Shown piece by piece: positions 2,470-60,781 of a stretch of DNA of 64,000 nucleotides. How positions within the stretch are numbered: position 1 is the first letter of the stretch; each line of letters begins with the position of its first letter. The position numbers and the translations under genes were made by a program. The notes below the pieces were generated by a model. It ran no database searches. It had not been told where the DNA came from and saw nothing but the letters and a program-made list of their open reading frames with translations. Source of the stretch: Minisyncoccota bacterium (GTDB lineage Bacteria; Patescibacteriota; Minisyncoccia; Phycocordibacterales; Phycocordibacteraceae); the NCBI GenBank assembly GCA_018062765.1, contig JAGORR010000001.1, forward strand, positions 78,638 through 142,637, read 5' to 3'.

Positions 2470-3023
2470 TCCTCGTTATCGTTTGCCGCCGCATCCCTCG
2501 CTATGCTCGCCTCTTCGGCAGCAAGCCACCTGTCATATTTCTTACGGGCTTCCCTGTCGTCGCTACGGACGGTCTGTGTTATCGCCCAAATGCTCATTGT
2601 CGACCATGGTAATACGTTCACATACGGAAGGAATTCGAGAATGCTATTGCCAGCCATGATGAATATGCGTGCCCCCATCTTATCGAGGAAGCCGACACCT
2701 ATAAGACGGAACCATGCGATAAAGACCAGTATCGATATAGCGCTTAGAGCCGCACCGATAATCCAGCCAAGCATTGCGATGCCCACTCCCACTCCCACCG
2801 AGTAGGACGCCACTAACGAGAGACTTGAGACGTAGCAGGCGACGTCTCCAGCCCACACACTCCCTGCCCAACCCTCGACCCAATATTTCGCAAAATAACA
2901 GATCAGTAGGGGCGCAAACACTACCATCAGGGCCCCTATAGTCTGAAGCATTTCAAACGTTAAAGCTACCGCGATCATCCGTATCTGACGGCCGCGCGGC
3001 ATCTTTGGTTCTGGTTTATTCAT
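2448..3023 (-). CDS. small polytopic membrane protein, T4SS-associated by position
   Basis: 191 aa with about four hydrophobic helices. 4-nt overlap with the stop of the VirB4-like gene (3020-3023). Confidence 0.6.
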   Translation of the reverse strand: MNKPEPKMPRGRQIRMIAVALTFEMLQTIGALMVVFAPLLICYFAKYWVEGWAGSVWAGDVACYVSSLSLVASYSVGVGVGIAMLGWIIGAALSAISILVFIAWFRLIGVGFLDKMGARIFIMAGNSILEFLPYVNVLPWSTMSIWAITQTVRSDDREARKKYDRWLAAEEASIARDAAANDNEEWAQQAA

Positions 3024-4852
3024 GGACGGCGGTCCTGGTCCGCTTCAGCAGCGAGCCGTTGTTTTTCCCGTTTGATTGAAAGAATCTGAGAAGGGTCCGA
3101 GGTGATTATCTGGTCCTCCGTGTATGAGGCGACAACCTTGATGGCAACATGCTTGAGGCCAGCAAAGAATAGCCCGTCCCCCACCCCAGCCTCTAGTAGG
3201 AGGAATTTTTCCTGGTCAGTAAGGTTGAATGTTTGCTTCAGGAGATCAATCGTCGTTGGCGACTGCTTCAAAAGAAGCTGCATGGAAGAGTTTGTGAGTA
3301 TCGGGCGCCCATATGGTGAGCGGAGGAAGTCCTCGACGTCCTGGGTAACGGTTGCGAGCCCTAAATAGTATTTACGACCGCGCTTGGCGAGACTGTAGAG
3401 GAATGACGCGGTGTCATCCGATTTCATCATCCACCAAGCCTCGTCGATGACGAGAAGACGCTTTCTCAGCTCGCGCCGTACGGCGTTCCAGATGTAGTGC
3501 GTAATGATATACATCGCAACCGGTTTCAGTTCATCCTCCATATCACGCACCGAGAAGACGATGAACTGCTTATTGATATCGATATTCGTCGGCTGATTCA
3601 GGAAGCCGGCCCAAGTACCCTTTGTGTATTTCGACAGACGCGTCACGAGGGATTCGCTTCCCTCCATCCCGGAGAGTACTGATTCGAAATCCGATAGGAG
3701 CGGTGCGTCCATCCCAGTGAAGTCGCGATTCCCGGTGATGTCCTTAAGGGCATAGGTTTCCGTAATAGCGCGATCGATGATGGCGTCCTCCTCCGGCGTG
3801 AGTCCCCCGAGCATGATGCGGAAGAGACCGACGAGGTTGATGATGACCGAACGCAATATGTCGTTTGGCTCCTCCCCTTCCCGCACGGGCGGAAGATCGA
3901 AAGGATTGATGTGATGCTCCGAGGAAAGCGAGATGTTGAAAAGGCGGCCGCCTGTTGCCTCCGCAAGGTATTCGTACTCGCGCTCAGGGTCGATGACGAT
4001 GACTTCTGTATCGAACATAAGCGAACGGAGAATTTCGAGCTTCACTGCGTAGGATTTTCCGGAGCCCGACTTCGCGAATACGACCGAGTTGTAGTTCTCT
4101 AGAGAGAATCGGTCGAAGAGGACGAGGGATGAGTTGTGGCGGTTGATGCCGTAGAGGATGCCCTTATCGGAGGTGAGGTCGTAGGAGACGAACGGGAATA
4201 GAGAAGAGAGAGGTGAGGTATTGAGTTTCGAATGGACGCCTAGCTCGTCGAGCTCCAGGGGAAGCGTTGAGCGGAAGCCCTGCTCCTGCTGGAATATCGC
4301 AGGCTTTGTGTATACGAGTTTAGCGTCGAGGATACCTCGTAATTTTCCTTCAAGATTATCGAGCTCGTCCTTACTGTCTGCGTAAATGGTTAGGTACAGT
4401 CCGACCTCAAACAAGCGCTCCTGTGCCTGCTGCAGCTGGTCCCGTAGACGCTCCAGGTCCTGGTATGAGGTATCGAGCATTGGGTCGCGCACAAGACCTT
4501 TTTGCGCGCGGTCGGCCTGCTGGCTCTCCACTTCCGCGACTTTCTTCTGGAACTGGCGAAGGATCTGGCCCGTCTCTATGGGGTGGATGAAGATGCCGAC
4601 ATCGAATACTTGGTCCAAATTAATAACCGGGGAAAACCAGTCGTCGGACAAAAACCGCGGATACGAGATGGTGTAAAAGGAGCGCGCAAACTTGGCGCCA
4701 AGCTCCAATTCCCTGCCGGTGACCTTGAGTGCTGCTGGCGCGATAGTGTCCGCCAGGTCTAAGGCTCCCTCTGCATAGATATCCTTAGGAAGCACAGACG
4801 CGATGTCTGGCGCCTCTTCTTTCTTACGGTTAAGGAAATCGAGGAGTGCCAT
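3020..4852 (-). CDS. virB4: VirB4/TrsE-type type IV secretion ATPase
   Basis: Walker A FAKSGSGKSYAV and Walker B RLLVIDEAWWMM, with the layout of Gram-positive VirB4-type conjugation ATPases. Start set at ATG 4852 (MALLDFLNRK), because the 14 extra codons of the tracked ORF (to 4894) lie inside a heptamer-repeat spacer. Confidence 0.85.
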   Translation of the reverse strand: MALLDFLNRKKEEAPDIASVLPKDIYAEGALDLADTIAPAALKVTGRELELGAKFARSFYTISYPRFLSDDWFSPVINLDQVFDVGIFIHPIETGQILRQFQKKVAEVESQQADRAQKGLVRDPMLDTSYQDLERLRDQLQQAQERLFEVGLYLTIYADSKDELDNLEGKLRGILDAKLVYTKPAIFQQEQGFRSTLPLELDELGVHSKLNTSPLSSLFPFVSYDLTSDKGILYGINRHNSSLVLFDRFSLENYNSVVFAKSGSGKSYAVKLEILRSLMFDTEVIVIDPEREYEYLAEATGGRLFNISLSSEHHINPFDLPPVREGEEPNDILRSVIINLVGLFRIMLGGLTPEEDAIIDRAITETYALKDITGNRDFTGMDAPLLSDFESVLSGMEGSESLVTRLSKYTKGTWAGFLNQPTNIDINKQFIVFSVRDMEDELKPVAMYIITHYIWNAVRRELRKRLLVIDEAWWMMKSDDTASFLYSLAKRGRKYYLGLATVTQDVEDFLRSPYGRPILTNSSMQLLLKQSPTTIDLLKQTFNLTDQEKFLLLEAGVGDGLFFAGLKHVAIKVVASYTEDQIITSDPSQILSIKREKQRLAAEADQDRRP

Positions 4853-4860
4853 ACTAGAAG

Positions 4861-4944
4861 TAGCGTACAGGTGACAGCGTGCAGCGTACAGCAAAAGCGG
4901 TGCAGGAGTGTTCAGTCTGGACGCTAGCCGCTAGACGCTTCATA
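4861..4944. repeat. 7-nt periodic tract filling the spacer upstream of virB4-like gene
   Basis: Read in register: TAGCGTA CAGGTGA CAGCGTG CAGCGTA CAGCAAA AGCGGTG CAGGAGT GTTCAGT CTGGACG CTAGCCG CTAGACG CTTCATA. Confidence 0.8.
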
Positions 4945-5577
4945 TCATTTTGTAAGCCTTATCGGGCTATCGAGCTCGCCGATGTTGAATGAGCGGTAGA
5001 GAAGCTCGATGATTTCCTCAGTGCCTAGGGGTACTGCGCGAATACCGGCCGAGTTTATGGCGCCTGCAGCCAGGGACATGCGCTGCTCGAGCTGGATGCG
5101 ATGCTCAGCGAATGCGTCGTTCCCTTCCCCGCCAGACCCGGATGACGGAGTGCGCTGGAGGAACGCGAGCGCACTCTTCACTTCCGAACCCGAGCCAGGT
5201 GCCAAAGGAACGACGATGTAGAATGTCTTCGTCATGATGTTTGCTTGATCAGCGAACGCGCGGACGAATTCCATGTATTCGCGTACCTGTATCTTCATGA
5301 GCTCGGTTTCCTGCTTATCTGTGCGCTCCTGAAGGAGTGCTAGGTACGGCCGGATATCCATGCGGCGGGAGTGCACAACAAGCTCCACGGAAAAATCGAG
5401 CGAATTGAGGAAGGTCTGGAATCCGCCGATGACCGCCCGCTGCTCGTCGTCGGATTTCAAGGAGAAGTTCACTGATGAGCACATGAGTATGCCCCGATAC
5501 GTGCCGTCCTTAAGGATGATGACCCCATTACGGACCTCCTTTACTGGAACAAACGACTGAGATGCTTTAGGCGCCAT
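4945..5577 (-). CDS. hypothetical protein, T4SS-associated
   Basis: 210 aa with an 11-nt overlap with the PrgI-like gene. The N-terminal pattern VPVKEVRNGVIILKDGTYRGILMCSSVNFSLKSDDEQ recalls the pre-ATPase region of Gram-positive VirB4 proteins (recollection, not a search). Confidence 0.6.
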   Translation of the reverse strand: MAPKASQSFVPVKEVRNGVIILKDGTYRGILMCSSVNFSLKSDDEQRAVIGGFQTFLNSLDFSVELVVHSRRMDIRPYLALLQERTDKQETELMKIQVREYMEFVRAFADQANIMTKTFYIVVPLAPGSGSEVKSALAFLQRTPSSGSGGEGNDAFAEHRIQLEQRMSLAAGAINSAGIRAVPLGTEEIIELLYRSFNIGELDSPIRLTK

Positions 5578-5986
5578 GGTTTTCTTCCTGCGTGCGGTCC
5601 TTTATATCGAGGGACCATGCTAGGTCCCGAATCTTCGAGGACGACAGCCCGAGCTTCTGGCGGGCTTCTTCTGGGGCGACGACAGCTTTGGGTGCTTCTT
5701 GCGCCTTATCCTCCTTACGCCATACGTAGAGTTTCCCGCCAAACAGGTACGACACCTGTGCCTCGACAATCTCAACGAACGGCTTGTTGTTGACGCGATA
5801 GAACGCGAGGGCGCCAGAGAGTGCGCCGACGGGAAGTGCCACGATGAGGAACCCAATCATGGGAAGGTAGGCAAACGCGATGACGCAGATACCGATGCCT
5901 CCGGCAAGGTATATGAACTGCTTCAGCGTGAATGGTCCAAATATCTTCCCTTCCACTTCGAGAAACTGCGGTACTTGGTACTCCAT
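5567..5986 (-). CDS. PrgI-like (VirB3-like) T4SS membrane protein
   Basis: 139 aa: MEYQVPQFLEVEGKIFGPFTLKQFIYL followed by two adjacent TM helices. This is the PrgI-family pattern, in the prgI-like position upstream of VirB4. Confidence 0.65.
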   Translation of the reverse strand: MEYQVPQFLEVEGKIFGPFTLKQFIYLAGGIGICVIAFAYLPMIGFLIVALPVGALSGALAFYRVNNKPFVEIVEAQVSYLFGGKLYVWRKEDKAQEAPKAVVAPEEARQKLGLSSSKIRDLAWSLDIKDRTQEENHGA

Positions 5987-6026
5987 CGCTCTATAGTATA
6001 CCGCCCGAGCGCCGAGTTTTGCGTGG

Positions 6027-6635
6027 TTATTGTGACGTACCCTCGTCTATGGGTTCACGATACGGGTCGCGAGCATAATTTTTTGGTACAGGAGCCGGAA
6101 GTGGCGCGATAGACGCAGGTGTTGTGACTTCACGCTCTGTTCGAGGGAGGCGGGGCTCGAAGACTGCTGGAGGTGTCACCGGCTCAGGGCGCGGCGCGGG
6201 AGGAGCAACAGGAGCAGAAGTTATCACAGGTGCAAGCGGCGCGGCTGGAGCGATTGGAGCAGTGGGTGGAGGAGTGGTGCCAAGAGGTGCAGGCACGTCG
6301 GTGAGTGGCGCGCGCGCAGGCTTCCCGGCCTCGCTCCGCATCTTCTCGTGGAGGGGCTTGAATATCGCGTCATTAAGTTCCTTGGCGATGAGAGAGGCTT
6401 TCAGATTAGATATGCCCATCTGCTCCATCTCCTGTATGAGCTGTGCAGGATTGATGAATCCGGACAACATAAGTCCAATGGACTCATCCAAGTCGCCTAC
6501 GACGTCTATGTGTAACTGGTACTTTGCACCTATGCGGCGCACTGCTGGCCCTAATTCACCGCTCGCGAGGTACTCACGAACAGAAAGAGGAAGACCGCGA
6601 TATGCCCGCAAAAGTTCTTCGTGTGGAATCTTCAT
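6027..6635 (-). CDS. hypothetical protein with Pro/Ala-rich C-terminus
   Basis: 202 aa with a helical N-terminal domain followed by PPPTAPIAPAAPLAPV... No family recognised. Confidence 0.55.
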   Translation of the reverse strand: MKIPHEELLRAYRGLPLSVREYLASGELGPAVRRIGAKYQLHIDVVGDLDESIGLMLSGFINPAQLIQEMEQMGISNLKASLIAKELNDAIFKPLHEKMRSEAGKPARAPLTDVPAPLGTTPPPTAPIAPAAPLAPVITSAPVAPPAPRPEPVTPPAVFEPRLPRTEREVTTPASIAPLPAPVPKNYARDPYREPIDEGTSQ

Positions 6636-12222: not shown

Positions 12223-14157
12223 TTAGTGTATCTGCGGCAGACCATCATGTTCGCCAATCTCCGCGACAGTGAGCGAAGGATCGATTTCCGATAGGAATTG
12301 CGACGGCTCCGAAAGGAAGTCCGTTCCATAGATACGGCGTACATGTGCGAGCGTGAGGATCAGGGTCTTTCGTGCGCGCGTCATGGCAACGTAGAAGAGG
12401 CGGCGCTCCTCCTCCTCATCGCGATCGTTATCATCGCCACCCTCATGCGGAAACAATCCCTGCTCGAGCCCTGAGACGTAGACGGTATCGAATTCGAGTC
12501 CCTTAGCCGCGTGCACCGTCATCAGAGTGACGCCGTTCTTCTTTACTTCCTCGCGCGGCCTATCGATCTCGTCCTGGTCGCCTGAGAGCGCCGCGTCTGC
12601 GAGGAATGCGCATATCCCTTCTTCGCCTGGGGTTGCGTCGAACCGGCTTGCGAAGGTCGCAAGCTCCTTCGCGTTCTCAATGCGCTCTTCGCCTTCCTCC
12701 CCGCCTTTCTCTAAGGAACTCATGAGACCGCTTTTCTCGATGACGAGCTTTACGAAAGCAGAGGGAGCAAGTTCTTTTGACGCCCTGTGGAGCGTTTCGA
12801 TGAGGGCATCAAACGCAGCGATTTTCGTGCGATCCGCGGCACGTAACTCCGCAGTTTTTCCGGCCATGATCTTCCCTACCGTAGTCTTTCCGATGCCGCG
12901 TGCAGGCGCCTGCATAGCGCGGAGCCGGTCAGACTCGCGTGTGGGGTCAAGCGCGGCGCGCATCCACGCGACCGCGTCTTTAATCTCCTTGCGGTCGAAG
13001 AAGCGGATGCCCAATAGTCGGTACGGTACGCCGTAGCGCAGGAACGCTTCCTCTAGGGCACGTGACTGGAAATTCGTCCGATATAGAACGGCGATGCTTT
13101 CCGGCTCATCCCCGCGTAGGACGCGTTTCTTCGTGTCGGATGCTATCCACGCAGCCTCGCCCTCAGCGTTCGCGGCGAGGTGTATGTGTATCGGCTCTCC
13201 GTCGTCGTTCGTCGTAACCGAACGCTTCTCCTTGCGATTCCGGTTCTTCTCGATGACCTGGTTTGCAGCTGCAACGATGGTTCCCGTCGAGCGGTAGTTT
13301 TCTTCAAGGATGACGGTTTTCGCGTCGGGATACGTGCGATCAAATTCAAGGAGGTTCTCGATAGTAGCGCCACGCCAGGTGTAGATGGTCTGATCGATAT
13401 CGCCGACCACAAACAGGTTGCGGTGCTTGCCCGAAAGCAGGTTCGCGAGCCTTCCCTGGAGTTCGTTGGTGTCCTGGTACTCGTCGATATGCACGTGCGA
13501 GAAGCGCGACTGCATCGCGTCGAGCGCTTCAGGGTGTTCTTCTAGGAGGCGAAGTGGAAGCAGAATCAGGTCATCGAAATCGAGCGCCTTTGCTTCCTTC
13601 AAGGAGCGCTCGTACTTAAGCCATGCTTCCGCGACGATGCGCGTCCGGAAGCTTTCGCGTGCATGGCGCGCATGGAACTCATCCGAACGCATTCCTGCCC
13701 CCTTTGCTTTACTGATACGCCCGAGAACGGTGCGCGGCGGCACCTCCTTGGGGTCAACATCAAGCGCCTTCAAGGCCTCCTTTATCGCACGTTCGGAATC
13801 ATCGCGATCGAATATAGAAAAGTAGCGGGGAACGCCGATAAAGCGCCCATGGGTCTCAAGTATCTCGCGTCCGAGTCCGTGGAAAGTCGCAATGAATGGA
13901 AGGTCTCGTCTGCGGCGGGTGTCGCCGGTCTCTCCGAGAAGCGTGGCGAGCCGTTCACGCATCTCACGGGCTGCCTTATTGGTGAATGTTACGGCGAGGA
14001 TTTTCTCAGGAGGCGTCCCTTCGCGGATGAGGTGGTAGATGCGACTCGTGAGTACCCGGGTTTTCCCTGAGCCTGCCCCTGCGAGTACCGAGATAGGGCC
14101 TTGGGTCGTAAGCACAGCCTCCTTTTGTCTTTCATTGAGGCCGTGGAGGTACTCCAT
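12223..14157 (-). CDS. pcrA: UvrD/PcrA-family ATP-dependent DNA helicase
   Basis: VLAGAGSGKTRVLT (motif I), IDEYQDTN (motif II) and TVHAAKGLEFD near the C-terminus. Confidence 0.9.
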   Translation of the reverse strand: MEYLHGLNERQKEAVLTTQGPISVLAGAGSGKTRVLTSRIYHLIREGTPPEKILAVTFTNKAAREMRERLATLLGETGDTRRRRDLPFIATFHGLGREILETHGRFIGVPRYFSIFDRDDSERAIKEALKALDVDPKEVPPRTVLGRISKAKGAGMRSDEFHARHARESFRTRIVAEAWLKYERSLKEAKALDFDDLILLPLRLLEEHPEALDAMQSRFSHVHIDEYQDTNELQGRLANLLSGKHRNLFVVGDIDQTIYTWRGATIENLLEFDRTYPDAKTVILEENYRSTGTIVAAANQVIEKNRNRKEKRSVTTNDDGEPIHIHLAANAEGEAAWIASDTKKRVLRGDEPESIAVLYRTNFQSRALEEAFLRYGVPYRLLGIRFFDRKEIKDAVAWMRAALDPTRESDRLRAMQAPARGIGKTTVGKIMAGKTAELRAADRTKIAAFDALIETLHRASKELAPSAFVKLVIEKSGLMSSLEKGGEEGEERIENAKELATFASRFDATPGEEGICAFLADAALSGDQDEIDRPREEVKKNGVTLMTVHAAKGLEFDTVYVSGLEQGLFPHEGGDDNDRDEEEERRLFYVAMTRARKTLILTLAHVRRIYGTDFLSEPSQFLSEIDPSLTVAEIGEHDGLPQIH

Positions 14158-17810: not shown

Positions 17811-18161
17811 TTACGAAAGGTGCGCGGTACAAGTCGTTGCTGCGGGGTCTGCTTCAAGCCGTTCCGGCTCTATCGCCTCTCCCCCGATCGCGCAGGTGCC
17901 ATAGGTACCAGCCTCGATGCGCGTGAGTGCTGCATTTACCGCCCGGTAGCGTATCTCAAGGTCCTCGAGTATCGCTGCGTTCTCGCTATACCCTTCCATC
18001 TGGTCCGCAGTGATATTAGGGTCCGCTTCAAGTCCCGTATCCTGCGGCTTTGGCTCCCAATCAACATTAGAGTTCGGGTTCCTGTTCCCTATTGAGGCCA
18101 GTTCAGTCTCGAGCTTCGCTGCCTCTTCCGTAAGTCGTGCCTTGTATGCTTCAGTTTCCAT
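17811..18161 (-). CDS. DksA/TraR-family protein with incomplete Cys4 finger
   Basis: 116 aa with a coiled-coil N-part and YGTCAIGGEAIEPERLEADPAATTC at the finger position. Confidence 0.6.
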   Translation of the reverse strand: METEAYKARLTEEAAKLETELASIGNRNPNSNVDWEPKPQDTGLEADPNITADQMEGYSENAAILEDLEIRYRAVNAALTRIEAGTYGTCAIGGEAIEPERLEADPAATTCTAHLS

Positions 18162-20001: not shown

Positions 20002-20511
20002 TTAGCGCGCGCCGATGAGGAAGCGCTTCGGATCCTCGCACATGTCGGTAAACGCGTGCGCGGCTTCTTTCAGTTTCCCCGACGACGACTTCCCGAACGA
20101 GATCACCTCGGTCTGTACGCCGTTCATATCAAGGAATTCGATAAGTGGTACGAAGTCACCATCGCCAGTCGCGAGGATTATCGTATCGAGCTTGTCTGAG
20201 AGTTTCACCGCGTCTATTGCGATACCCACATCCCAGTCCGCCTTCTTCGCGCCATCGGAGAAGACCTGCAGGTCCTTGACCTTGGTCTCGATGCCGATTT
20301 TGGTGAGCGCGTCGAAGAAGTTTTTCTCGTCCCCTGCCTCGGTCGAGATGACGTATGCGATAGCGCGCACCAAGGTGCGGCCTCCCACGGCCTCTTCGAG
20401 GACCTTGGCGAAGTTGACTCGCGCTTTATAAAGGTTCTTCGCGCTGTGGTACAGGTTCTGCGTATCGATGAAAACGCCGACGCGCTGAGCCGTATGTTTA
20501 ATGACTGCCAT
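20002..20511 (-). CDS. NYN/LabA-like (DUF88) domain protein
   Basis: VGVFIDTQNLYHSAKN and ILATGDGDFVPLIEFL signatures; 169 aa. Confidence 0.75.
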   Translation of the reverse strand: MAVIKHTAQRVGVFIDTQNLYHSAKNLYKARVNFAKVLEEAVGGRTLVRAIAYVISTEAGDEKNFFDALTKIGIETKVKDLQVFSDGAKKADWDVGIAIDAVKLSDKLDTIILATGDGDFVPLIEFLDMNGVQTEVISFGKSSSGKLKEAAHAFTDMCEDPKRFLIGAR

Positions 20512-20546
20512 ATAAATAGCTATTAGCTTCTAGCTTTGAGCTTCCA
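20512..20546. repeat. 7-nt periodic tract abutting NYN start codon
   Basis: ATAAATA GCTATTA GCTTCTA GCTTTGA GCTTCCA. Confidence 0.7.
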
Positions 20547-20652
20547 GATATGAAAAAGGAAAACCCAAAAAGTTTGTAAATCGGGAACAGGCCGAGCGGC
20601 CTCCCTCTCCCATGCTACCACTGAAGCACAAAGCCCCGTTTGGGGCCTGTGA

Positions 20653-22057: not shown

Positions 22058-22852
22058 ATGCGCATCATGAGCTGGAACGTGAACGGCATCCGTGCCGTTC
22101 ATAAGAAAGGCGTCTTCCTCCCCTTCCTTAAAAAGTACAAGCCGGACATCCTCTGTCTCCAGGAGACTAAGGCGGAACAAGAGCAGTCCCCTCTTGACCT
22201 CCCTGACTATGAGGAGTATTGGAGCTCAGCAAAGAAGAAGGGCTACAGTGGAACGGCTATTTTCACCAAGGTTACCCCGGATGACGTAGTTTTTGGCATG
22301 CCGGAGGACATTGCTAAAAAGTGGGGGCTTGCGGGCGATAGCTACGGAGACCCAAACCAGGAGGGGCGTATCGTCGCCTGCGATATGCATGATTTCTGGG
22401 TGGTATCGGTCTACACTCCGAACGCTAAGGACGATCTCTCCCGTCTTCCGCTGCGTCATAAGCACTGGGACCCTGCGTTCCTCGAATATATGAAGCGACT
22501 TGAGGAGGATAAACCCGTCATATTCTGCGGGGACTTAAACGTTGCTCACACTCCGGAAGACCTCGCCCGTCCCAAGGAGAACGACGGTAAGAAAGGATTT
22601 ACTAATGAGGAGCGCGAAGGGATTGATAACATCATCTCCGCTGGCTTCTTCGACACCTTTCGTGCCTTCAAGCAGGGCGGCGGTTTCTATACATGGTGGA
22701 CCGCATGGGGCGGGGCGCGTGAGCGCAATGTGGGATGGCGTATCGACTACATTTTTGCCTCAAGTTCTTTTAAGAAGCATGTTAAAGGCGCCGACATACA
22801 TCCTGATGTCATGGGCTCCGATCACTGCCCCGCTTCCCTTACTCTGGGATAA
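22058..22852 (+). CDS. xth: exodeoxyribonuclease III
   Basis: MRIMSWNVNGIRA ... GSDHCP. Confidence 0.9.
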   Translation: MRIMSWNVNGIRAVHKKGVFLPFLKKYKPDILCLQETKAEQEQSPLDLPDYEEYWSSAKKKGYSGTAIFTKVTPDDVVFGMPEDIAKKWGLAGDSYGDPNQEGRIVACDMHDFWVVSVYTPNAKDDLSRLPLRHKHWDPAFLEYMKRLEEDKPVIFCGDLNVAHTPEDLARPKENDGKKGFTNEEREGIDNIISAGFFDTFRAFKQGGGFYTWWTAWGGARERNVGWRIDYIFASSSFKKHVKGADIHPDVMGSDHCPASLTLG

Positions 22853-23269: not shown

Positions 23270-24733
23270 CTAGCAAACGTTGTGCTTCTCGAGGATGCGC
23301 CGTACTTCCAACTCCTCCTCAATCTCGCGACGTTTTTTGCCGGACTCCCCCATGTCCTTTAGCTCACTGTCCTTTAGAGCAAGTAATTCCCCTGCCCTAC
23401 TATCCATATACTCCTCCGTATTCTTCTCAGGATCGATAAGTACCTCCTCCAAGAGTGCATTTAAAGTCCACCCAATGCGCGGACCAGGTTCCACGTGAAA
23501 GCGGCTCATAAGACGTCTACCGTCAGTCTTAAGCATTGCTACGGATATCGGGTCGCGAAGCGCCTGTTCAACCATGGCCTTGTACTTACGGAAACGAAAA
23601 GGCTGCTCTTTAGGGCGGCCAGTACCTATGCGGTCACATATCCTAAGGTTCAACAGATCCCAAATATTCTCCTCCCCTACGTTCACAATCATCCGGCGGA
23701 CAGCGGACAGCGATATTTGGTCAGGGTCGGAGAAGAACATGTGCCAGCGTACTAGTTTCACAACTTTTGAGATAGTTTCCCGTGAAAACCGGAGGTCCTC
23801 TAGAGCTTTGCGTGTTACACGTGAACCAACTACCTCGTGTCCGTGGAAAGTCCAGTCCTGTTTCTCTTCGGACCAACGCCTAGTGTCTGGCTTAGCGATA
23901 TCGTGGAATAGGGCAGAAAGGCGTATATCGAAGCCCCATCCCTTGTCTGCGGCGTGCTGCATGCTTCGCATAAGATGCTCGAACACGTCGTAGCTGTGTG
24001 CCTGATTTTGCGCCACGCCGACGGACTGCGGCAAATCAGGAACTATATGTGGCAACAAACCGAGCTGCAGAGCCAAGGTGAATGCCATCATTGGCTGGTC
24101 AGACATGAGGATTCGGGTAAGTTCATCCCGAACCCTTTCACGTGAAATAGCCCCTAGATTGCTAGCTTTTTCGCTTATTGCAGCCGCAGTTTCGCCATCT
24201 AGGACAAATCCAAGCTCTGCGACGAGGCGTATAGCCCGCATAAGGCGCAGTCCGTCTTCCTCAAATCGGATGCTAGGTACTCCTACGGCCCGGAGAACCT
24301 TGGCTTTCAGGTCTACTTGTCCTTTATAGGGGTCTACGATGTGTCCTTTAGAGTCGTCCAGGGCTATGGCGTTCACGGTGAAGTCCCGGCGAGCGAGGTC
24401 ATCCTCGAGGCTCTCGCCGAATATGACTTCGTCCGGCCGGCGCTTATCGGAGTACCCGGTCTCGGTTCGATATGGGGTCACCTCGACAACTGCCGTTGTC
24501 TCGTCCTCAGACCCGGTCTTTACCCCGACTGTCCCGAACTCGTTTTCGTAAAAGGAGTCGGGGAAGACTCTTTGGATGTCTCCTGGCTTTGCGTTGGTGG
24601 TGACATCCCAATCCTTGGGCTTTCGATTGAGCAATAGATCACGTACACAGCCGCCCACCAGGTAGGCCTCGAAGCCTGCATTGCGCAAGTCCCCGGCGAC
24701 CTTCTCTACTACGTTTGGAATAGGGAAGTGCAT
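23270..24733 (-). CDS. cca: CCA-adding tRNA nucleotidyltransferase with HD domain
   Basis: GGCVRDLLLNRKPKDWDVTT head domain and FHDIAKP HD motif. Confidence 0.9.
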   Translation of the reverse strand: MHFPIPNVVEKVAGDLRNAGFEAYLVGGCVRDLLLNRKPKDWDVTTNAKPGDIQRVFPDSFYENEFGTVGVKTGSEDETTAVVEVTPYRTETGYSDKRRPDEVIFGESLEDDLARRDFTVNAIALDDSKGHIVDPYKGQVDLKAKVLRAVGVPSIRFEEDGLRLMRAIRLVAELGFVLDGETAAAISEKASNLGAISRERVRDELTRILMSDQPMMAFTLALQLGLLPHIVPDLPQSVGVAQNQAHSYDVFEHLMRSMQHAADKGWGFDIRLSALFHDIAKPDTRRWSEEKQDWTFHGHEVVGSRVTRKALEDLRFSRETISKVVKLVRWHMFFSDPDQISLSAVRRMIVNVGEENIWDLLNLRICDRIGTGRPKEQPFRFRKYKAMVEQALRDPISVAMLKTDGRRLMSRFHVEPGPRIGWTLNALLEEVLIDPEKNTEEYMDSRAGELLALKDSELKDMGESGKKRREIEEELEVRRILEKHNVC

Positions 24734-39895: not shown

Positions 39896-40051
39896 CTAGA
39901 AAGTCTGGCTTTCTGCTGCAGGGGTCGGAAGAGGAGCCTTACGCTTTTCGATTCGTTCGCCCCAGACGTAGAAGGCACCGATGACGACGATGGCGAGGAT
40001 GAGAAAGATGGAGATGAGTGCACCGTACGACGCGTTCTTCTTTGGGGGCAT
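39896..40051 (-). CDS. possible 51-aa single-TM protein
   Basis: MPPKKNASYGALISIFLILAIVVIGAFYVWGE... from ATG 40051. The upstream part of the tracked ORF is heptamer-repeat DNA. Confidence 0.35.
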   Translation of the reverse strand: MPPKKNASYGALISIFLILAIVVIGAFYVWGERIEKRKAPLPTPAAESQTF

Positions 40052-40054
40052 ATG

Positions 40055-40089
40055 AATACAGGGTACAGCGTACAGGTTACAGCGTACAG
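40055..40089. repeat. 7-nt periodic tract
   Basis: AATACAG GGTACAG CGTACAG GTTACAG CGTACAG. Confidence 0.85.
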
Positions 40090-40095
40090 TGGAAA

Positions 40096-40124
40096 ACGAA
40101 CAAACGCCGCGATGCGACGTTTGT
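40096..40124 (-). terminator. ppa terminator hairpin
   Basis: GAACAAACG-N11-CGTTTGTTC followed by GTTTTCC on the minus strand. Confidence 0.6.
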
Positions 40125-40127
40125 TCC

Positions 40128-40155
40128 TGACAGCTAAAAGCTAGAAGCTGTAAGC
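40128..40155. repeat. 7-nt periodic tract
   Basis: TGACAGC TAAAAGC TAGAAGC TGTAAGC. Confidence 0.85.
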
Positions 40156-40673: not shown

Positions 40674-40680
40674 ATAAGAG

Positions 40681-40715
40681 ATAGCGTATAGCTGACAGCG
40701 TGCGGCGTACAGGGG
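40681..40715. repeat. 7-nt periodic tract filling nusA-ppa spacer
   Basis: ATAGCGT ATAGCTG ACAGCGT GCGGCGT ACAGGGG. Confidence 0.85.
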
Positions 40716-40716
40716 A

Positions 40717-42353: not shown

Positions 42354-43331
42354 TTAGGCGAATGCCCAGTCACCATTGATCGTGGTCGCTTCTGCAGCGA
42401 ACACCAAAGGCGGGGGCGGAACCCACTCGACGCCAGGAGCCAGATAGATGTGGCCGACGTTCGCCCCGTTCTCGATCGTCAACGACTTGGACGAGATTAC
42501 GAGGTCGTGTCCGACCATCGTGATTTCGCTGTTGTCGAGGCCGAGCGAGGTCAGGACAAGCGAGTCGTGGACGTTCGCATCGGAGAGCACGGTAGTGCCG
42601 TTGCCGAACCGGGCGTCGAAGACGTCCGAGCCCGAGCCGCCGTGCATGGTGTCGTTGCCGCCACCGCGCAGGACGTCGCGTCCGTCGCCGCCAACGAGGA
42701 AGTCGCCCACCCCGTCTTCGACACCGTTCGACTGGAAACCACGGACGTCGTCGTTGCCGTCGCCGCCGTGGACCGTGTCGGCTCCGTTGCCGCCGAACAG
42801 TGTGTCGTTGCCGTCCTCGCCGTAGAGCGAGTCGTCACCGTTGTTGCCGTTCAGCGTGTCGCTGTCAGCACCGCCCCAGGCGCGATCGCGCGCCGACGAA
42901 CCGCTGACCCAGTCGTTGCCGGCGCCGCCGAAAAACTGGTCGAGGCCGGTACCGCCGAACATCTTGTCGTGGCCGTCGCCGCCGATGAACATGTTGTCCC
43001 CGGTCGAGCCGCGAGCGTAGAGGTAGTCGTCGCCTTGTACGCCGAGCAGCCAGTTGTCGCCGCTCCCGTTGACCCTGACCTCGTCGTTGCCTTCGCCGCC
43101 GACCAGCTGGTCGTTCCCGGAGGCAGAGATCAGCTGGTCGTTCCCGGAGTGGCCCTCTAGGTGGTCGTCGCCCTGGGTGCCGATGAGGGTGTCGTTGCCG
43201 GCACCTGCAAGGATGGCGAGGCCGTGATCCGTAAACGCGCGGAAGTCCATGCGATTCGGGTCGTGGTCGCCCCACCTGGTGGTGGCGTCAGTGGCGAAGT
43301 AGGTCGGCATCACGGGTTCTGCACGGTTCAT
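42354..43331 (-). CDS. RTX (hemolysin-type Ca-binding) repeat protein
   Basis: 325 aa. About 20 tandem GGxGxD-type nonapeptides by eye (GGEGNDEV, GGDGHDKM, GGAGNDWV, GGNGADTV, GGDGNDDV...). No N-terminal signal peptide. Visibly GC-richer than its neighbours. Confidence 0.8.
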   Translation of the reverse strand: MNRAEPVMPTYFATDATTRWGDHDPNRMDFRAFTDHGLAILAGAGNDTLIGTQGDDHLEGHSGNDQLISASGNDQLVGGEGNDEVRVNGSGDNWLLGVQGDDYLYARGSTGDNMFIGGDGHDKMFGGTGLDQFFGGAGNDWVSGSSARDRAWGGADSDTLNGNNGDDSLYGEDGNDTLFGGNGADTVHGGDGNDDVRGFQSNGVEDGVGDFLVGGDGRDVLRGGGNDTMHGGSGSDVFDARFGNGTTVLSDANVHDSLVLTSLGLDNSEITMVGHDLVISSKSLTIENGANVGHIYLAPGVEWVPPPPLVFAAEATTINGDWAFA

Positions 43332-46678: not shown

Positions 46679-48391
46679 ATGCCGTTTGAAAATCGGGGGA
46701 TGACTTTAATCGACGTTCTCGTCGGTACTTCCGTCGCGGTCATCATTTTCCTCGGCATCTTCGTTATCCTTCAGGCATCCGCATCCATTACGGGCGCGTC
46801 TGCATCGAAGGCGACCGCATTGGCGCTCGCCAACGGGCGTATTGAGATGTTGCGCTCCTTACCATACGCATCCATAGGAACGGTGGGCGGCATTCCGTCA
46901 GGTGCCATCGCGCAGGAAGAGACCATTTATTCCGATCTGGTGCCGTACGAGGTCCGTACCTTCATCTCTTACTACGACGATGCGAAGGACGGCTCGGGCG
47001 CTGCAGACTCTAATGGCATCCAGGCGGACTACAAGCGGGCGAAGGTGACAGTTACCTACGAGACACAGAACGGGGAGCGGGAAGTAGCCGTCGTTTCGAC
47101 CTTTGCGCCGATTGGAATCGAGACGACTGCGGGTGGCGGCACGCTACGCGTCGTCGTTGTGGACGCTGACGGCGTAGCGGTTCCAGGAGCAGAAGTTGTT
47201 GTCGAAAATCCAAATACAACTCCCACAATCGACGTAACGACGTACACAGACTTCGCGGGGTACGCCTTATTCCCGGGTGCCGCGACCTCAACGGGGTACG
47301 AGGTGTCAGTCACAAAGGGCGGGTGGTCTACGGCGCGCACCTATAGTCAGGACGCAACCAACCAGAACCCGACACCGGGACATCTCACCATCGCTGGGGG
47401 GCAGACGACGACCGGCACGTTTGCGATAGATGAGCTTGCGGCCGTCCTCGTGCGTTCCTTTACACCGGTTGTGCCTGGCACATGGTCCGATGCATTTATA
47501 GATGCGTCGAATCTCGTGACGATGGTGGGTGTATCGGTAGGTGGAGGCGAGCTCACGCTCGCAACTGGCGCGGACGGGTATGAGGCGTCAGGTGCTGCCG
47601 TCGCGTCATCGGTAGCACCCACCTATCTTGTTGCGTGGCACGAAGCGTCATTTACTCCCGCAACTCCTGGCGGGACGACGCTTCTGGTGAAAGTTACCGA
47701 CGCTGCCGGTACCTTGGTGCCGGACGCCGCGCTCCCCGGGAACAGCAGTGGTTTCGCGGCATCACCAATAGACCTCTCCGCGCTCGCAACATCGACCTAT
47801 CCATCTCTTTCGCTACGTGCTGAGCTTTCAACCGCTGCCACTACGACAACGCCGACGCTTGCGGATTGGGGGCTGGCCTATAGTCGTGGTCCGATACCGT
47901 ATCCGTCTCTGGCGTTCTCGCTTACAGGCGCGAAAGCCATAGGTTCTACCGTAGGCGGCGCACCTATATATAAGACCGAACTCGATGAGACGACCGATTC
48001 TTCCGGAAGCATCGGCCTCGATCTTGAGTGGGACAGCTACACACTCTCGCTCTCAGGCCCCGTGATTATCGATACCTGTGCCGCGTTCCCACTTGAAGTG
48101 GCGCCTGGCGCGGGTATGACGGCGGACATTATCGTTGCGACTTCGACTGGGAATGCGCTCAAGGCGTATGCGAAATTTCTGTCGGGGAGCGCTGTGGCGA
48201 GTCCTACGTTCACTCTCTCGAGGAGCGGCTTTTCGCGCACGTTGCCTGGGAACGTGTGCGGATTTGCTTACTTTGGAGACCTCACGCCAGCTGCCGATTA
48301 CGCGCTTTCTGTGACTTCGACCTCTACGACCGAGTCGTTCACTGACATTTCTATTTCCGGTCTTTCAAGCTATGACGCGATTCTCGATTGA
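46679..48391 (+). CDS. giant pilin-like protein (class III signal-like N-terminus)
   Basis: NRG|MTLIDVLVGTSVAVIIFLGIF and a CarboxypepD_reg-like segment GTLRVVVVDADGVAVPGAEVVVENP; ~570 aa. Confidence 0.65.
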   Translation: MPFENRGMTLIDVLVGTSVAVIIFLGIFVILQASASITGASASKATALALANGRIEMLRSLPYASIGTVGGIPSGAIAQEETIYSDLVPYEVRTFISYYDDAKDGSGAADSNGIQADYKRAKVTVTYETQNGEREVAVVSTFAPIGIETTAGGGTLRVVVVDADGVAVPGAEVVVENPNTTPTIDVTTYTDFAGYALFPGAATSTGYEVSVTKGGWSTARTYSQDATNQNPTPGHLTIAGGQTTTGTFAIDELAAVLVRSFTPVVPGTWSDAFIDASNLVTMVGVSVGGGELTLATGADGYEASGAAVASSVAPTYLVAWHEASFTPATPGGTTLLVKVTDAAGTLVPDAALPGNSSGFAASPIDLSALATSTYPSLSLRAELSTAATTTTPTLADWGLAYSRGPIPYPSLAFSLTGAKAIGSTVGGAPIYKTELDETTDSSGSIGLDLEWDSYTLSLSGPVIIDTCAAFPLEVAPGAGMTADIIVATSTGNALKAYAKFLSGSAVASPTFTLSRSGFSRTLPGNVCGFAYFGDLTPAADYALSVTSTSTTESFTDISISGLSSYDAILD

Positions 48392-48437
48392 TATGGAAAG
48401 AGCAGCGAGCAGCGAAAAGTGTACAGCGACTAGGAAT

Positions 48438-49058
48438 ATGACCACCGCTTCTTCCGCGGCTATACGCTTTCGGGCCGGCTTTACGCTTATCGAGACGTTG
48501 ATGGTGATTGGTCTTACCGCCGTCGTGGGACTCGCGATTTCGAACATGATTTTGTTCACCTATCGCACGAACACCTACCTCTACCAGCAGAGCGCAGCGA
48601 CTGATAACGCGCGACGCGGCCTCGACCCGGCGCTGCAGAACCTACGCGAGGCGACCTACGCTGCTGATGGCTCGTATCCGCTGTCGACGGCAGCTACTTC
48701 GTCCGTAACTTTCTTCAGCGACGTCGATGTCGACGGATCGGTTGAGAAAATTCGTTACTATCTCTCAGGGACGACGTTCTATCGCACGATTACGAATCCG
48801 GCAGGTTCGCCCCCGTCATACGTGGGGCAGGCAGCCGCGACGTCGACTATCGCTTCCTACGTGAAGAATTTCTCCGCAAACGCGAGCGTGTTCCGCTATT
48901 ACGACAGCACCGGAACGGAGCTTGCAGCGCCCATTGATGTTGCTGAGGTGAGGAGTATCAGTATCTCGGTAATGGTCGACGTGGACCCAAACCGCACACC
49001 AACGACCTATTCGCTCACGGGCTCGGCGACATTCCGCAACCTGCGCGATACTGATTGA
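48438..49058 (+). CDS. pilin/pseudopilin-like protein
   Basis: Prepilin motif RAG|FTLIETLMVIGLTAVVGLAI. Start uncertain (ATG 48393 or 48438). Confidence 0.65.
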   Translation: MTTASSAAIRFRAGFTLIETLMVIGLTAVVGLAISNMILFTYRTNTYLYQQSAATDNARRGLDPALQNLREATYAADGSYPLSTAATSSVTFFSDVDVDGSVEKIRYYLSGTTFYRTITNPAGSPPSYVGQAAATSTIASYVKNFSANASVFRYYDSTGTELAAPIDVAEVRSISISVMVDVDPNRTPTTYSLTGSATFRNLRDTD

Positions 49059-49070
49059 TATGGAAAGGAA

Positions 49071-49155
49071 AGCGTTTAGCGTAGAGCGTAGAGCATGTAG
49101 GAAAGACGGACCGGCTTCTTCTATACGCTATACGCTATCAGCTAGACACTCTCTG
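49071..49155. repeat. two 7-nt periodic tracts of opposite polarity
   Basis: AGCGTTT AGCGTAG AGCGTAG AGCATGT (49071-49098) and CTATACG CTATACG CTATCAG CTAGACA CTCTCTG (49121-49155). Confidence 0.8.
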
Positions 49156-49170
49156 CAAGGCGGGTATCTC

Positions 49171-50589
49171 ATGCTCCTGTCGCTCGTCTTTGGCGGGATA
49201 TTCCTAGGACTCCTCGGAGCGCTAACGAGCTACGTTCTTCTTGAGAATCGGCTTCAGGACCAGAAGGACGCGCAAGGTCGTGCATTTGCGATAGCTGAAG
49301 CAGGGCTCGAGTACTATCGATGGTTCTTGGCGCACTATCCGGGAAACGTCACGAATGGAGTTTCAGGCGGCCCCACAACGTTTACGCTTCCGTACTATGA
49401 CCCGGAGGGCGAGCAGCTCGGAAACTACACGCTGACGCTGAATCAGAATTCCGCCTGTGGCGCCGTCTCCTCCGTAGATATCGAATCGGAGGGCGCTACG
49501 CTCGATATGCCACAGGTGACACAGACGGTATCGGCGCGCTACGCGCAGCCTTCGGTTGGGCGTTATTCCTACGTATTGAATGACAGCGTATGGGCCGGCG
49601 CGGACCGCATCATCCTGGGGCCCTATCACTCCAATGGTGGTATCCGTATGGACGGGACCGCAAACTCATCTGTGTCGAGCTCGGTTTCGACTTGGAACTG
49701 CACGAGTAGCTACGGCTGTAGCCCAACGCAGTCGGCTGCGCCAGGCGTTGTTGGCACAGGCCCCAATCAGAGTCTTTGGACGTATCCGGTGCCGCAGGTG
49801 GACTTTGCGGCCATAGCTGCGGATTTTGCCTCGCTCAAATCGACCGCGCAGGCGCAGGGTCTCTACTATCCTCGCTACAGTAATACGAACAATCCGAATT
49901 CCTCTGCGTACTGGCACGGATACCACCTCACATTTAACGCAAACGACACCGTTACGGTTCGGCGCGTGACCTCAACAACGGAACTCGAGGTCGAGCCAGT
50001 GAATCCGGCGGAGACCCTCGATACAGACCGCGCGCTGATAGCGAACGAAACCATGTATGAAACGAGGACGATACCCGCTTCATGCGGACTCATCTACGTG
50101 GAGGATCACGTATGGATAGATGGCACCATCCCGTCTGAAGTGACGGTCGTTGCCGCTAATACAGCGTCGGGGCTCTCACCAAACGCATACCTGCGCAACA
50201 ACATCGTGTATGAAAATACAGACGGTAGTTCTGGCCTCACACTTATTGCGGAGAACAACGTGCTGATTGCACCTAACGCGCCTGCTGCAATGACCCTGAA
50301 CGGCATCTTCATCGCACAGAACGGTGCGTTTGGTCGGAACCTCTACTACAACAATTCCCGGACAGCATGCCACTCAACCTATGAACCGAAAACATCTCTC
50401 ACCATCCTTGGCACCACGGTCTCGAACAAGCGCACCGGAACCAAGTGGACCGGCGTTTCCTGCTCGGGCGGATACGCGGGCTTCGGTACCCGTATCGACT
50501 CCTACGACGAGCAGATGGCCATAGATCCACCACCCTTCACTCCTATCGTTTCGACCGATTACGAGATTATGGATTGGCGTGAACGGTAG
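49171..50589 (+). CDS. PilX-like pilus-associated protein
   Basis: Hydrophobic N-terminus MLLSLVFGGIFLGLLGAL, then AFAIAEAGLEYYRWFL (PilX_N-type pattern). Start set downstream of the heptamer tracts. Confidence 0.55.
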   Translation: MLLSLVFGGIFLGLLGALTSYVLLENRLQDQKDAQGRAFAIAEAGLEYYRWFLAHYPGNVTNGVSGGPTTFTLPYYDPEGEQLGNYTLTLNQNSACGAVSSVDIESEGATLDMPQVTQTVSARYAQPSVGRYSYVLNDSVWAGADRIILGPYHSNGGIRMDGTANSSVSSSVSTWNCTSSYGCSPTQSAAPGVVGTGPNQSLWTYPVPQVDFAAIAADFASLKSTAQAQGLYYPRYSNTNNPNSSAYWHGYHLTFNANDTVTVRRVTSTTELEVEPVNPAETLDTDRALIANETMYETRTIPASCGLIYVEDHVWIDGTIPSEVTVVAANTASGLSPNAYLRNNIVYENTDGSSGLTLIAENNVLIAPNAPAAMTLNGIFIAQNGAFGRNLYYNNSRTACHSTYEPKTSLTILGTTVSNKRTGTKWTGVSCSGGYAGFGTRIDSYDEQMAIDPPPFTPIVSTDYEIMDWRER

Positions 50590-60335: not shown

Positions 60336-60743
60336 ATGGCGACCATCAATCAGCTTTCGAAGAAGCACCGCAAGGACAAGACTCGTAAGTCTAAGGTCCT
60401 TGCTCTTGGGCGTGGTTTCAATCACCTCGAGAACCGTCCCACCTACTACTCGGCCCCCTTCAAGCGCGGTGTCTGCACGAAGGTAACGACGAAGACTCCT
60501 CGCAAGCCTAACTCGGCTATTCGTAAGATTGCCCGTGTCCGTCTCTCTAACGGTATGGAGGTTACGGCGTATATCCCAGGCGAGGGACACAACCTCCAGG
60601 AGCACTCCGTCGTCCTGCTTCGTGGTGGTCGCGTGAAGGACATCGGTGTCCAGTACACTATCGTTCGCGGCAAGCTCGACACTGCAGGCCTTGAGAAGCG
60701 ACGCCGTGGACGATCGCGCTACGGAGCGAAGAAACCAAAATAG
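60336..60743 (+). CDS. rpsL: 30S ribosomal protein S12 (with ~12-aa insertion near N-terminus)
   Basis: MATINQL ... [22 protein letters not shown] ... LRGGRVKD. Extra segment [17 protein letters not shown]. Start at ATG 60336. Confidence 0.95.
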
Positions 60744-60768
60744 CTATCAGCTACTAGCTACGAGCTTT
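60741..60768. repeat. 7-nt periodic tract in rpsL-rpsG spacer
   Basis: TAGCTAT CAGCTAC TAGCTAC GAGCTTT. Confidence 0.8.
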
Positions 60769-60781
60769 AAATACAAGAAAT

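Follow-up and report, generated by a model that had tools for sequence, protein, structure and literature searches.

What are imperfect seven-nucleotide repeats doing between two genes of a type IV secretion system (T4SS) operon that, in most related genomes, practically adjoin each other? The question is raised by a 64,000-nt stretch of a Minisyncoccota genome (hereafter the window, whose numbering is used throughout), in which 92 nt separate the stop codon of a TraC-like gene from the ATG of the gene for the ATPase VirB4. On balance, we favor the view that this spacer is a degenerate copy, without a gene, of an intergenic element which is dispersed and resembles the intervening sequences (IVSs) of 23S rRNA, and that translation is most likely kept up across it by a relay. 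The ends of the element appear to be inverted arrays of imperfect tandem heptads, and we infer that the heptads before virB4 are a relic of these ends rather than a virB4-specific signal. The genome belongs to the Patescibacteria and is Paceibacteria/Kaiserbacteria-like. The T4SS cluster also holds a PrgI-like gene and a T4SS pilin-like gene; for its annotation we used a public contig (JAGOQO010000006.1 of assembly GCA_017991435.1) that is 100% identical to the window over 11,447 nt. The two genes and the parts of the spacer are as follows:

3020-4852, minus strand: gene for a VirB4/TraG-type P-loop ATPase (PF19044, E = 1.2e-25), with its ATG at 4852-4850.
4945-5577, minus strand: upstream gene of 210 aa, TraC-like (PF26593) in the public record, with its TGA stop at 4947-4945.
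4853-4944, minus strand: the whole inserted element, 92 nt from the upstream stop to the virB4 ATG, delimited by ortholog gap comparison and period-7 autocorrelation.
4917-4941, minus strand: left arm GAAGCGTCTAGCGGCTAGCGTCCAG, CTAGCGN-type heptads (Tandem Repeats Finder array 4920-4939), complementary to the right arm at 17/25 positions.
4894-4916, minus strand: non-repetitive center ACTGAACACTCCTGCACCGCTTT, 23 nt, without similarity to the centers of other elements.
4860-4893, minus strand: right arm TGCTGTACGCTGCACGCTGTCACCTGTACGCTAC, CTGTACG-type heptads (Tandem Repeats Finder array 4862-4892), ending 8 nt before the ATG.
4853-4859, minus strand: tail TTCTAGT, which includes the TAG closing the candidate relay frame, 1 nt before the virB4 ATG.
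4862-4867, minus strand: TACGCT, a hexamer weakly resembling a -10 box, 9 nt ahead of the virB4 ATG.
4854-4943, minus strand: 29-codon open frame MKRLAASVQTEHSCTAFAVRCTLSPVRYF, a candidate translational relay (TGA-T-ATG ... TAG-T-ATG) whose peptide is not conserved.

That the tract is non-random and has a 7-nt period, as the first-pass annotation of this DNA had proposed, is borne out by autocorrelation. Over 84 nt, period 7 gives 0.481, period 14 gives 0.457 and period 21 gives 0.429, against about 0.25 for other periods; the observed period-7 value is matched by one of 20,000 dinucleotide-preserving shuffles, and by two of 5,000 when the maximum over periods 4-15 is taken. The earlier parse of 4861-4944 into twelve consecutive heptads is exact on the plus strand, flanks included, but only two blocks of about 3-5 imperfect units each actually repeat. 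Tandem Repeats Finder reports 4.4 copies at 4862-4892 (score 39) and 2.9 copies at 4920-4939 (score 33), both under its usual threshold of 50, with units about 76-84% alike. The middle heptads AGCGGTG, CAGGAGT and GTTCAGT are no repeats, and still the register is kept, with C at unit position 1 in nine of the twelve. Read on the sense strand, the 92-nt spacer is T ATG AAGCGTCTAGCGGCTAGCGTCCAG ACTGAACACTCCTGCACCGCTTT TGCTGTACGCTGCACGCTGTCACCTGTACGCTAC TTCTAGT. Two other sources of a 7-nt pattern were considered and rejected: an enrichment of stop codons in all three frames, which is inconsistent by side and strand and absent in the virB4 copy, and a HutP-like two-site (NAG-N4)x3 RNA, considered from the pattern alone and otherwise unsupported, a pattern that any heptad containing AG will produce.

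The origin of the tract is best approached through the orthologous junctions. We fetched 160 orthologous VirB4 loci with 71-86% amino-acid identity and could place both genes in 150 of them. The gap from the upstream stop to the VirB4 ATG is at most 12 nt (T, CT, TCT, CCT and similar) in 114 loci, 13-40 nt in 11, 41-200 nt in 16 and more than 200 nt in nine. No relative above 86% VirB4 identity was found among the genome or metagenome contigs searched, the near-identical records being the same genome. One of these, an independent assembly (Logan SRR11088468 contig, L174), ends at window position 4738, 115 nt before the heptad element, which may be a repeat-induced break. Because the stop lies within 12 nt of the VirB4 ATG in 114 of the 150 orthologous operons, which are thus essentially without a spacer, the tract has to be read as an insertion, and virB4 has no conserved regulatory spacer here. 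The same comparison shows a stop-T-ATG junction, with presumed translational coupling, to be the ancestral state. In the clearest pair of an empty and a filled site, L081 has TAA-C-ATG and L001 has TAA-102 nt-ATG, and the last 12 nt of the upstream gene are shared.

The first-pass annotation had held that its reading would fall if orthologous operons lacked any periodic spacer. The 114 short junctions do lack one, but about 25 relatives carry an insertion at exactly this junction, most of them built on two inverted arms with differing heptads, and this points to a sporadic, apparently dispersed element. Their common layout runs from 3-5 heptads at or near the stop through a center and the inverted complement of the heptads to a short C/T-rich tail and the ATG; the tail directly before the ATG is CTACTTCT in L001 and CTATTCYT in L060, L135, L143 and L150. 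Among the insertions longer than 40 nt, the arms are complementary at p <= 0.01 in 16 of 26, and arm period-7 autocorrelation typically reaches 0.4-0.76. The position of the center is taken in these relatives by a PF05635 gene or by an apparent remnant of its 5' end. Of the nine inserts of more than 200 nt, six or more contain the gene. Those of L041, L050, L064 and L065 encode the PF05635 23S rRNA-intervening sequence protein with E = 1e-19 to 1e-38 (and weaker bAvd matches), and a PF05635 open reading frame (ORF) stands at this junction also in L098, L117, L118, L144 and L151. The centers of several short elements open with ATGCAAA..., as PF05635 ORFs do at their starts, which suggests that such elements could have arisen by internal deletion.

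The association of the gene with heptad arms extends across the loci. A flank was scored as having a period-7 block when 17 or more of 28 positions matched. By this measure 23 of 28 PF05635 ORFs have a block in at least one flank and 15 of 28 in both, whereas the control periods give only 3 ORFs at period 8 and 2 at period 5 (Fisher p = 1e-7), and all PF05635 ORFs are aligned with the direction of their operon (29/29). Period 7 prevails among the tandem arrays of three or more copies in 1.6 Mb of these genomes: it accounts for 104, period 6 for 37, period 8 for 20 and period 5 for 4. ORF-bearing and ORF-less versions also stand side by side. L135 has three elements with the same arms within 2 kb (2208-2665, 3160-3250 and 3904-3995), one with a PF05635 ORF and two without, and L150 has two almost identical ORF-less copies of 105 nt at different junctions (3158-3262 and 3900-4005). 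In both genomes near-identical elements thus occupy two or three successive junctions within a single T4SS operon, which looks like recent spread or gene conversion within the genome. The arms of L121, L135 and L143 are identical and their centers have diverged, so that the arms look to be under constraint. Heptads are moreover a property of the genome: units of different elements lie within one mismatch of each other in 33% of comparisons in the same genome as against 5% between genomes, a difference reached in none of 1,000 permutations. As to the heptad type seen before virB4, PF05635 cassettes elsewhere in the same operon have arms made of CTAGCGC/CTAGCGT heptads in L038 and of CTAGAAG/CTAGCAG heptads in L130. 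In these two loci it is the junction corresponding to 5987-6026 of the window that holds PF05635 cassettes with CTAGCGT/CTAGCAG arms.

The window itself contains further members of the family. It had been noted earlier that similar two-block sites occur at about 40055/40128 and at 49071/49121; this is correct, and the set can be extended:

49059-49170, plus strand: E2, two inverted arms AGCGTAG / CTATACG (fold z = -2.1), with an ATG 1 nt after the stop and in frame with the downstream gene.
48392-48437, plus strand: E3, a single CAGCGAG-type arm between a stop and a pilin-like gene, recognized by its heptads and left-end alignment.
40674-40716, minus strand: E4, a right arm on its own, lying between the stop of NusA and the ATG of the pyrophosphatase gene, recognized by alignment to the virB4 right arm and tail.
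40052-40154, minus strand: E5, a TAGCTNN arm, a terminator-like hairpin and a CTGTACG arm reaching up to an ATG (fold z = -4.3).
20512-20556, minus strand: E6, AAGCTNN heptads up to the ATG at 20511, recognized by heptad periodicity.
60741-60769, no strand: E7, TAGCTNN heptads that take up all the space separating two convergent stop codons, recognized by heptad periodicity.

At the threshold of 17/28 the window has 12 period-7 sites as against 0-4 for the control periods 4, 5, 8, 10, 11 and 13, and at 19/28 it has 4, against none for the control periods and 0.03 in shuffles. The right arm and tail of the virB4 element match the pyrophosphatase spacer (E4) at 32 of 40 positions by hand count, at an equal distance from the ATG, and a 21-mer of this arm recurs at 40693-40713 with two mismatches where none is expected by chance. 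At its left end the virB4 element reads TGA-T-ATG-(G)AAAG...AGCG, which can be aligned with two further elements, at 48389 and 49056, that likewise have TGA-T-ATG as their left end. The copies in this genome have their arms in common, not their centers.

Several observations attach to these copies. The longest-ORF starts of two pilus-cluster genes pass through heptads (48372-48440 and 49060-49173, plus strand: MERAASSEKCTATRN-M... and MERKAFSVERRACRK...-M...). Their real starts are probably the ATGs at 48438 and 49171; alternatively, the tracts are translated. Between the arms of E5, downstream of the pyrophosphatase gene, stands a strong terminator-like hairpin (40095-40130, minus strand: AACAAACGTCGC...GCGGCGTTTGTT followed by GTTTT), which leaves the 42-nt right arm to supply the start signal that the short gene at 40051 must have. 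The 27/54-nt tandem repeats at 42750-42985 (minus strand, inside the ORF 42354-43331; Tandem Repeats Finder scores 91-140) are unrelated to the heptads and probably encode a repeated peptide motif of a protein.

Since full-length relatives at the same junction in other Patescibacteria carry the PF05635 gene, which encodes an Avd-like protein with a four-helix bundle, between arms of this kind, the virB4 element can be viewed, by analogy, as the operon-spacer counterpart of the IVS elements in 23S rRNA, and an IVS-like identity is well supported. Such an insertion raises a difficulty for its host: placed at a stop/start junction, it must presumably restore expression of the downstream gene, and the stem of intact copies would be an RNase III-type substrate. 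In the virB4 copy the stem is weak because the arms have drifted to 17/25 complementarity. Only one frame is open across this copy. It begins with the ATG at 4943, 1 nt after the upstream TGA, and ends with the TAG at 4856-4854, 1 nt before the virB4 ATG, so that TGA-T-ATG and TAG-T-ATG both match the commonest orthologous junction. From this geometry we infer a relay: ribosomes terminating at the upstream TGA would restart at ATG 4943, 1 nt downstream, read 29 codons across the element, stop at TAG 4856-4854 and restart once more, 1 nt on, at virB4 ATG 4852. The decayed element could then be tolerated because translation is relayed across the insert. The stop-adjacent ATG frames of E2 and E3 are likewise open across the element and are fused in frame to the downstream genes, and that of L001 is open across its element and ends 12 nt past the VirB4 ATG. 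The probabilities of such open frames in shuffles are 0.35 for the virB4 element, 0.06 and 0.46 for the sister elements and 0.10 for L001, with a product of about 1e-3.

Several points weigh against this interpretation. The virB4 copy has no alignable PF05635 remnant, its center being only 23 nt, and no PF05635 homolog was found in the window and 9.6 kb beyond its left edge (73.6 kb of the genome). The assignment therefore relies on architecture, heptad type, position and paralogs, not on homology to a full element. No other member of the heptad-bearing set has arms as weak as those of the virB4 copy (14/21 complementary over 21 nt, p = 0.025), and the fold of this copy is unremarkable. Taken alone, the open frame of the virB4 element, at a probability of 0.35, is unexceptional, and inspection by eye revealed no relay-type ORFs in the elements of other lineages, many of which instead supply a good -10 box at a distance of 6 nt from the ATG. 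TATG borders both ends of the element only here and in L001, and not in other lineages, so that a clear, general target-site duplication is lacking; nor is any transposase linked to the heptad-armed elements.

How do other explanations of the spacer fare? An active RNA-processing site, in which the arms pair in the polycistronic transcript and RNase III cuts the stem to uncouple the virB4 mRNA from the upstream cistrons, appears unlikely to us. It has a precedent in the Coxiella IVS, whose 28-bp terminal-repeat stem is cut by RNase III with the 5' cut at the first heptamer (PMC4990558). Intact relatives of the virB4 element form near-perfect stems of 18-21 bp; three compensatory pair changes distinguish the arm stems of L068 and L122, and the inserts of L060, L068 and L056 fold with z-scores of -1.8 to -5.0. 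The first-pass annotation was right that the two blocks in front of virB4 are partly complementary: over 25 nt they can be matched in inverted orientation at 17 positions at best, which 5 of 1,000 shuffles also attain, or at 19 with G-U pairs counted by hand. The pairing that it envisaged is less convincing, the helix being interrupted by six mismatches in 25 positions and the spacer RNA showing no excess stability over shuffles (-25.1 kcal/mol, z = +0.48 in the sense direction; z = -0.52 antisense). No intrinsic terminator, in the form of a GC-rich hairpin with a T run, occurs in 4853-4944, and Rfam at gathering score recognizes only four tRNAs across the whole window. A query with the Escherichia coli Rnc sequence found no match in the window and the 160 loci, which says nothing where genomes are partial. 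Pairing, finally, is not universal in the family, since the arrays of some cassettes from cyanobacteria and Gemmatimonadota are direct rather than inverted.

An internal promoter is a further alternative that we regard as doubtful. Here the last heptad would supply the -10 box TACGCT (4867-4862) and give rise to a nearly leaderless virB4 mRNA. The general setting is favorable: the genome is, to judge from its upstream sequences, a user of leaderless-type promoters. Of 55 window genes, 11 (for example those at 12223-14157, 17811-18161 and 23270-24733 on the minus strand and at 22058, 53756 and 55474 on the plus strand) have TAnnnT 6 nt ahead of the ATG, as do 162 of 1,353 genes of the loci, over a background of about 25 per offset, and gaps of 7-9 nt are also enriched. 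The promoter logo of the lineage lacks a -35 element and has TAtAaT at -12..-7, with A at -9 in 79% and G at -14 in 57%. The absence of a Shine-Dalgarno motif before virB4, to which attention had been drawn, is real and yet uninformative, a permissive Shine-Dalgarno-like motif being present in only 10 of the 59 predicted window genes. At the VirB4 junction itself, the same motif is found 5-9 nt ahead of the ATG in 14 of the 30 spacers that measure at least 28 nt as against 13 of 114 short-gap orthologs (p = 6e-5), and in other lineages the last heptad of the element often gives a good -10 box at leaderless spacing, as in TGTAAACT-ATTCTT-ATG. Genes inside operons are linked by overlaps or stop-N-ATG junctions; the virB4 spacer had been described as the only real gap in its operon, which is incorrect, for the 40 nt at 5987-6026 (minus strand) before the PrgI-like gene form a second one, with TATACT 8 nt upstream of the ATG, probably an internal promoter of the leaderless type. 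TACGCT compares poorly with all this. At -15..-10, with a gap of 9 rather than 6-7 nt, it has G for A at the fourth hexamer position, that is, it lacks the A that is 79% conserved at -9, and there is no G at the equivalent of -14. A scan of 4700-6200 for sigma-70 -35/-10 consensus promoters and terminators yielded nothing in the virB4 spacer, and the mirror-image left arm would bear the same hexamers, directed antisense into the upstream gene. The virB4-specific pairing structure, promoter or processing site implied by the earlier description is not borne out for this copy. Three relatives (L014, L028 and L103) have short AT-rich VirB4 junctions of 31-33 nt without heptads; those of L014 and L103 look like an ordinary promoter, with TTTACA ... 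TAAATA at 6-7 nt from the ATG, and a spacer of this type may be another route to independent VirB4 expression.

We consider it improbable that the heptads are a binding-site array for a heptad-reading protein—a cold-shock-type protein, ribosomal protein S1 or the pentameric PF05635 protein itself—that regulates virB4 or the element. Factors of this sort have been proposed to bind the heptamers arrayed just ahead of start codons in Beggiatoaceae, cyanobacteria and Bacteroidetes (PMC4679880), 3-5 units per arm would suit them, and genome-specific heptad "dialects" are what co-evolution with a binding partner should leave behind. To a reader of single strands, however, the two arms offer complementary and not identical sequences, units vary between the elements of one genome, those of the virB4 copy are only about 76-84% alike, and no candidate protein came to light in this analysis.

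Quite improbable is a coding function of the tract, either as an N-terminal extension of VirB4 from TTG 4894 or as a functional 29-aa micro-protein, even if both frames are open and the heptad frames of E2 and E3 are fused in frame to the downstream gene. VirB4 orthologs align from residue 1 of MALLDFL..., the Met encoded by ATG 4852, and this ATG, which also starts the 610-aa VirB4 of the GCA_017991435.1 annotation, is therefore the start and TTG 4894 is not. An upstream stop is at most 12 nt away in 114 of 150 loci, which also rules out the longer version; that the tract lies outside VirB4, as first described, hence stands. The 29-aa peptide has no Pfam family match and no similarity to the equivalent ORF of L001, and a 7-nt period in DNA is no coding pattern. 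Least credible of all is chance periodicity or a phase-variable simple-sequence repeat, for which one could cite Tandem Repeats Finder scores under the default threshold, a window-wide maximum of shuffled sequence (mean 0.458) near 0.48 and the variable heptamer number among Coxiella strains, but which is at odds with the single local shuffle in 20,000 that reaches the observed value, the 12 period-7 sites in the window against 0-4 for control periods, the existence of paralogous arms and units too imperfect for efficient slippage.

If the spacer is, as we favor, a decayed IVS-like element, a broader proposition can be offered tentatively: PF05635 genes may represent one widespread type of cassette, bounded by usually inverted 7-8-nt arrays, which wedges itself co-oriented into operon junctions and rRNA and decays to relics, arrays of the kinds known as STRR (short tandemly repeated repetitive sequences) and TAACTGA repeats being its footprints. 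Among 12 plasmid-borne PF05635 genes from cyanobacteria, Gemmatirosa and Azospirillum that served as a spot check (L161 and L163-L172; the cyanobacteria are Nostoc, Pseudanabaena, Geminocystis, Picosynechococcus, Trichormus, Anabaena and Leptolyngbya), eight had tandem heptads on one or both flanks, three had 8-nt arrays and one had neither. These arrays are mostly inverted, with direct ones flanking some of the cyanobacterial and Gemmatimonadota cassettes. The plasmid genes are annotated as "Four helix bundle" or "S23 ribosomal"; one flanking array is CTAAAAG x16, and several left-arm units have a (G/T)(A/T)CAG core in common with the Coxiella heptamer GACAGAT. Several of the genes are wedged between operon genes, such as cas6 and cas4, cmr2 and cmr3, or ribonucleotide reductase subunit genes.

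Should this proposition hold, the hosts of the cassette would include Patescibacteria, cyanobacteria, Gemmatimonadota and Alphaproteobacteria, and its relics would comprise ORF-less two-arm and one-arm forms. The genome-specific "dialects" would then suggest that the arms are renewed in a concerted or templated way, and insertions would survive only where the downstream gene is rescued, by a leaderless -10 box at the end of the element or by a relay frame. The Coxiella IVS heptamers, the start-codon arrays of phyla poor in Shine-Dalgarno motifs and orphan "four helix bundle protein" genes may accordingly belong to one element family. The family would illustrate how an essential operon of a tiny, leaderless-translating genome of the candidate phyla radiation can take up an insertion without silencing of the downstream gene. 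For T4SS studies it matters that the tract is not a conserved virB4 control element. In practical terms, such tracts mark the junctions of split operons and lead gene callers astray: longest-ORF predictions beginning at 4894, 48372 and 49060 pass through heptads and would probably give the proteins false N-terminal extensions.

Several known systems invite comparison. Translational coupling by termination-reinitiation at stop/start junctions is well established, and the stop-N-ATG arrangement at both ends of the 29-codon frame is identical to that at the junctions of element-free orthologs; what differs is the proposed relay through an inserted short ORF. In being short, non-coding, dispersed in intergenic DNA and inverted at their ends, with a sequence specific to the genome, the elements resemble miniature inverted-repeat transposable elements (MITEs) and repetitive extragenic palindromic doublets forming hairpins (REPINs). 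They further share with these the presence of several related copies per genome, the presence or absence of an element between relatives (L001 filled, L081 empty) and the existence of ORF-bearing and ORF-less versions with the same ends. They differ in having no associated transposase, ends of tandem heptads instead of a unique terminal repeat and no clear target-site duplication, and in that the copies in this genome share arms and not centers.

The cyanobacterial STRR heptamers, said to have been described by Mazel et al. in 1990, are reportedly intergenic tandem heptamers with lineage-specific units, usually in longer and perfect arrays. PF05635 genes on Nostoc, Trichormus and Anabaena plasmids are flanked by such arrays, a relation that is an observation of this analysis and not an established fact. 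Direct repeats of the heptamer TAACTGA precede start codons in Beggiatoaceae, cyanobacteria and Bacteroidetes, where they were described without a mechanism, translational control being the proposal (PMC4679880). Like the arms described here, they consist of two to six tandem heptamers a few nucleotides from the start codon, in a setting poor in Shine-Dalgarno motifs and also inside operons. They differ in keeping one conserved unit genome-wide, almost always in direct orientation, and no link to PF05635 was made in that work; the units before virB4 are CTGTACG- and CTAGCGN-like, imperfect, variable and arranged in two inverted blocks.

The nearest parallel is the 23S rRNA IVS of Coxiella burnetii, a 428-nt insert with a PF05635 (S23p) ORF, a 28-bp terminal-inverted-repeat stem cut by RNase III, and three tandem GACAGAT heptamers directly before the ORF ATG, whose number varies between strains; IVSs of Leptospira and Salmonella are cited in the same paper (PMC4990558). 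There the heptamers are mentioned only in passing and are not tied to a general architecture, and beyond this paper we found no literature in the library searched that links PF05635 genes in general with flanking heptamer arrays. The virB4 element differs in lying in the mRNA spacer of a T4SS operon rather than in helix 25/45 of 23S rRNA, and in having no ORF and a degraded stem. The likenesses are nonetheless several. Both kinds of element end in inverted arms about four heptads long (a 28-bp stem in Coxiella, arms of 17/25 complementarity in the virB4 copy), with tandem heptamers in the arm beside a start codon, which in Coxiella are the three GACAGAT units in the 5' arm before the ORF ATG. 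In both kinds the ORF is decaying or dispensable and the distribution sporadic and selfish-looking, and the protein family of the Coxiella ORF, PF05635, is carried by the full-length relatives at the virB4 junction itself.

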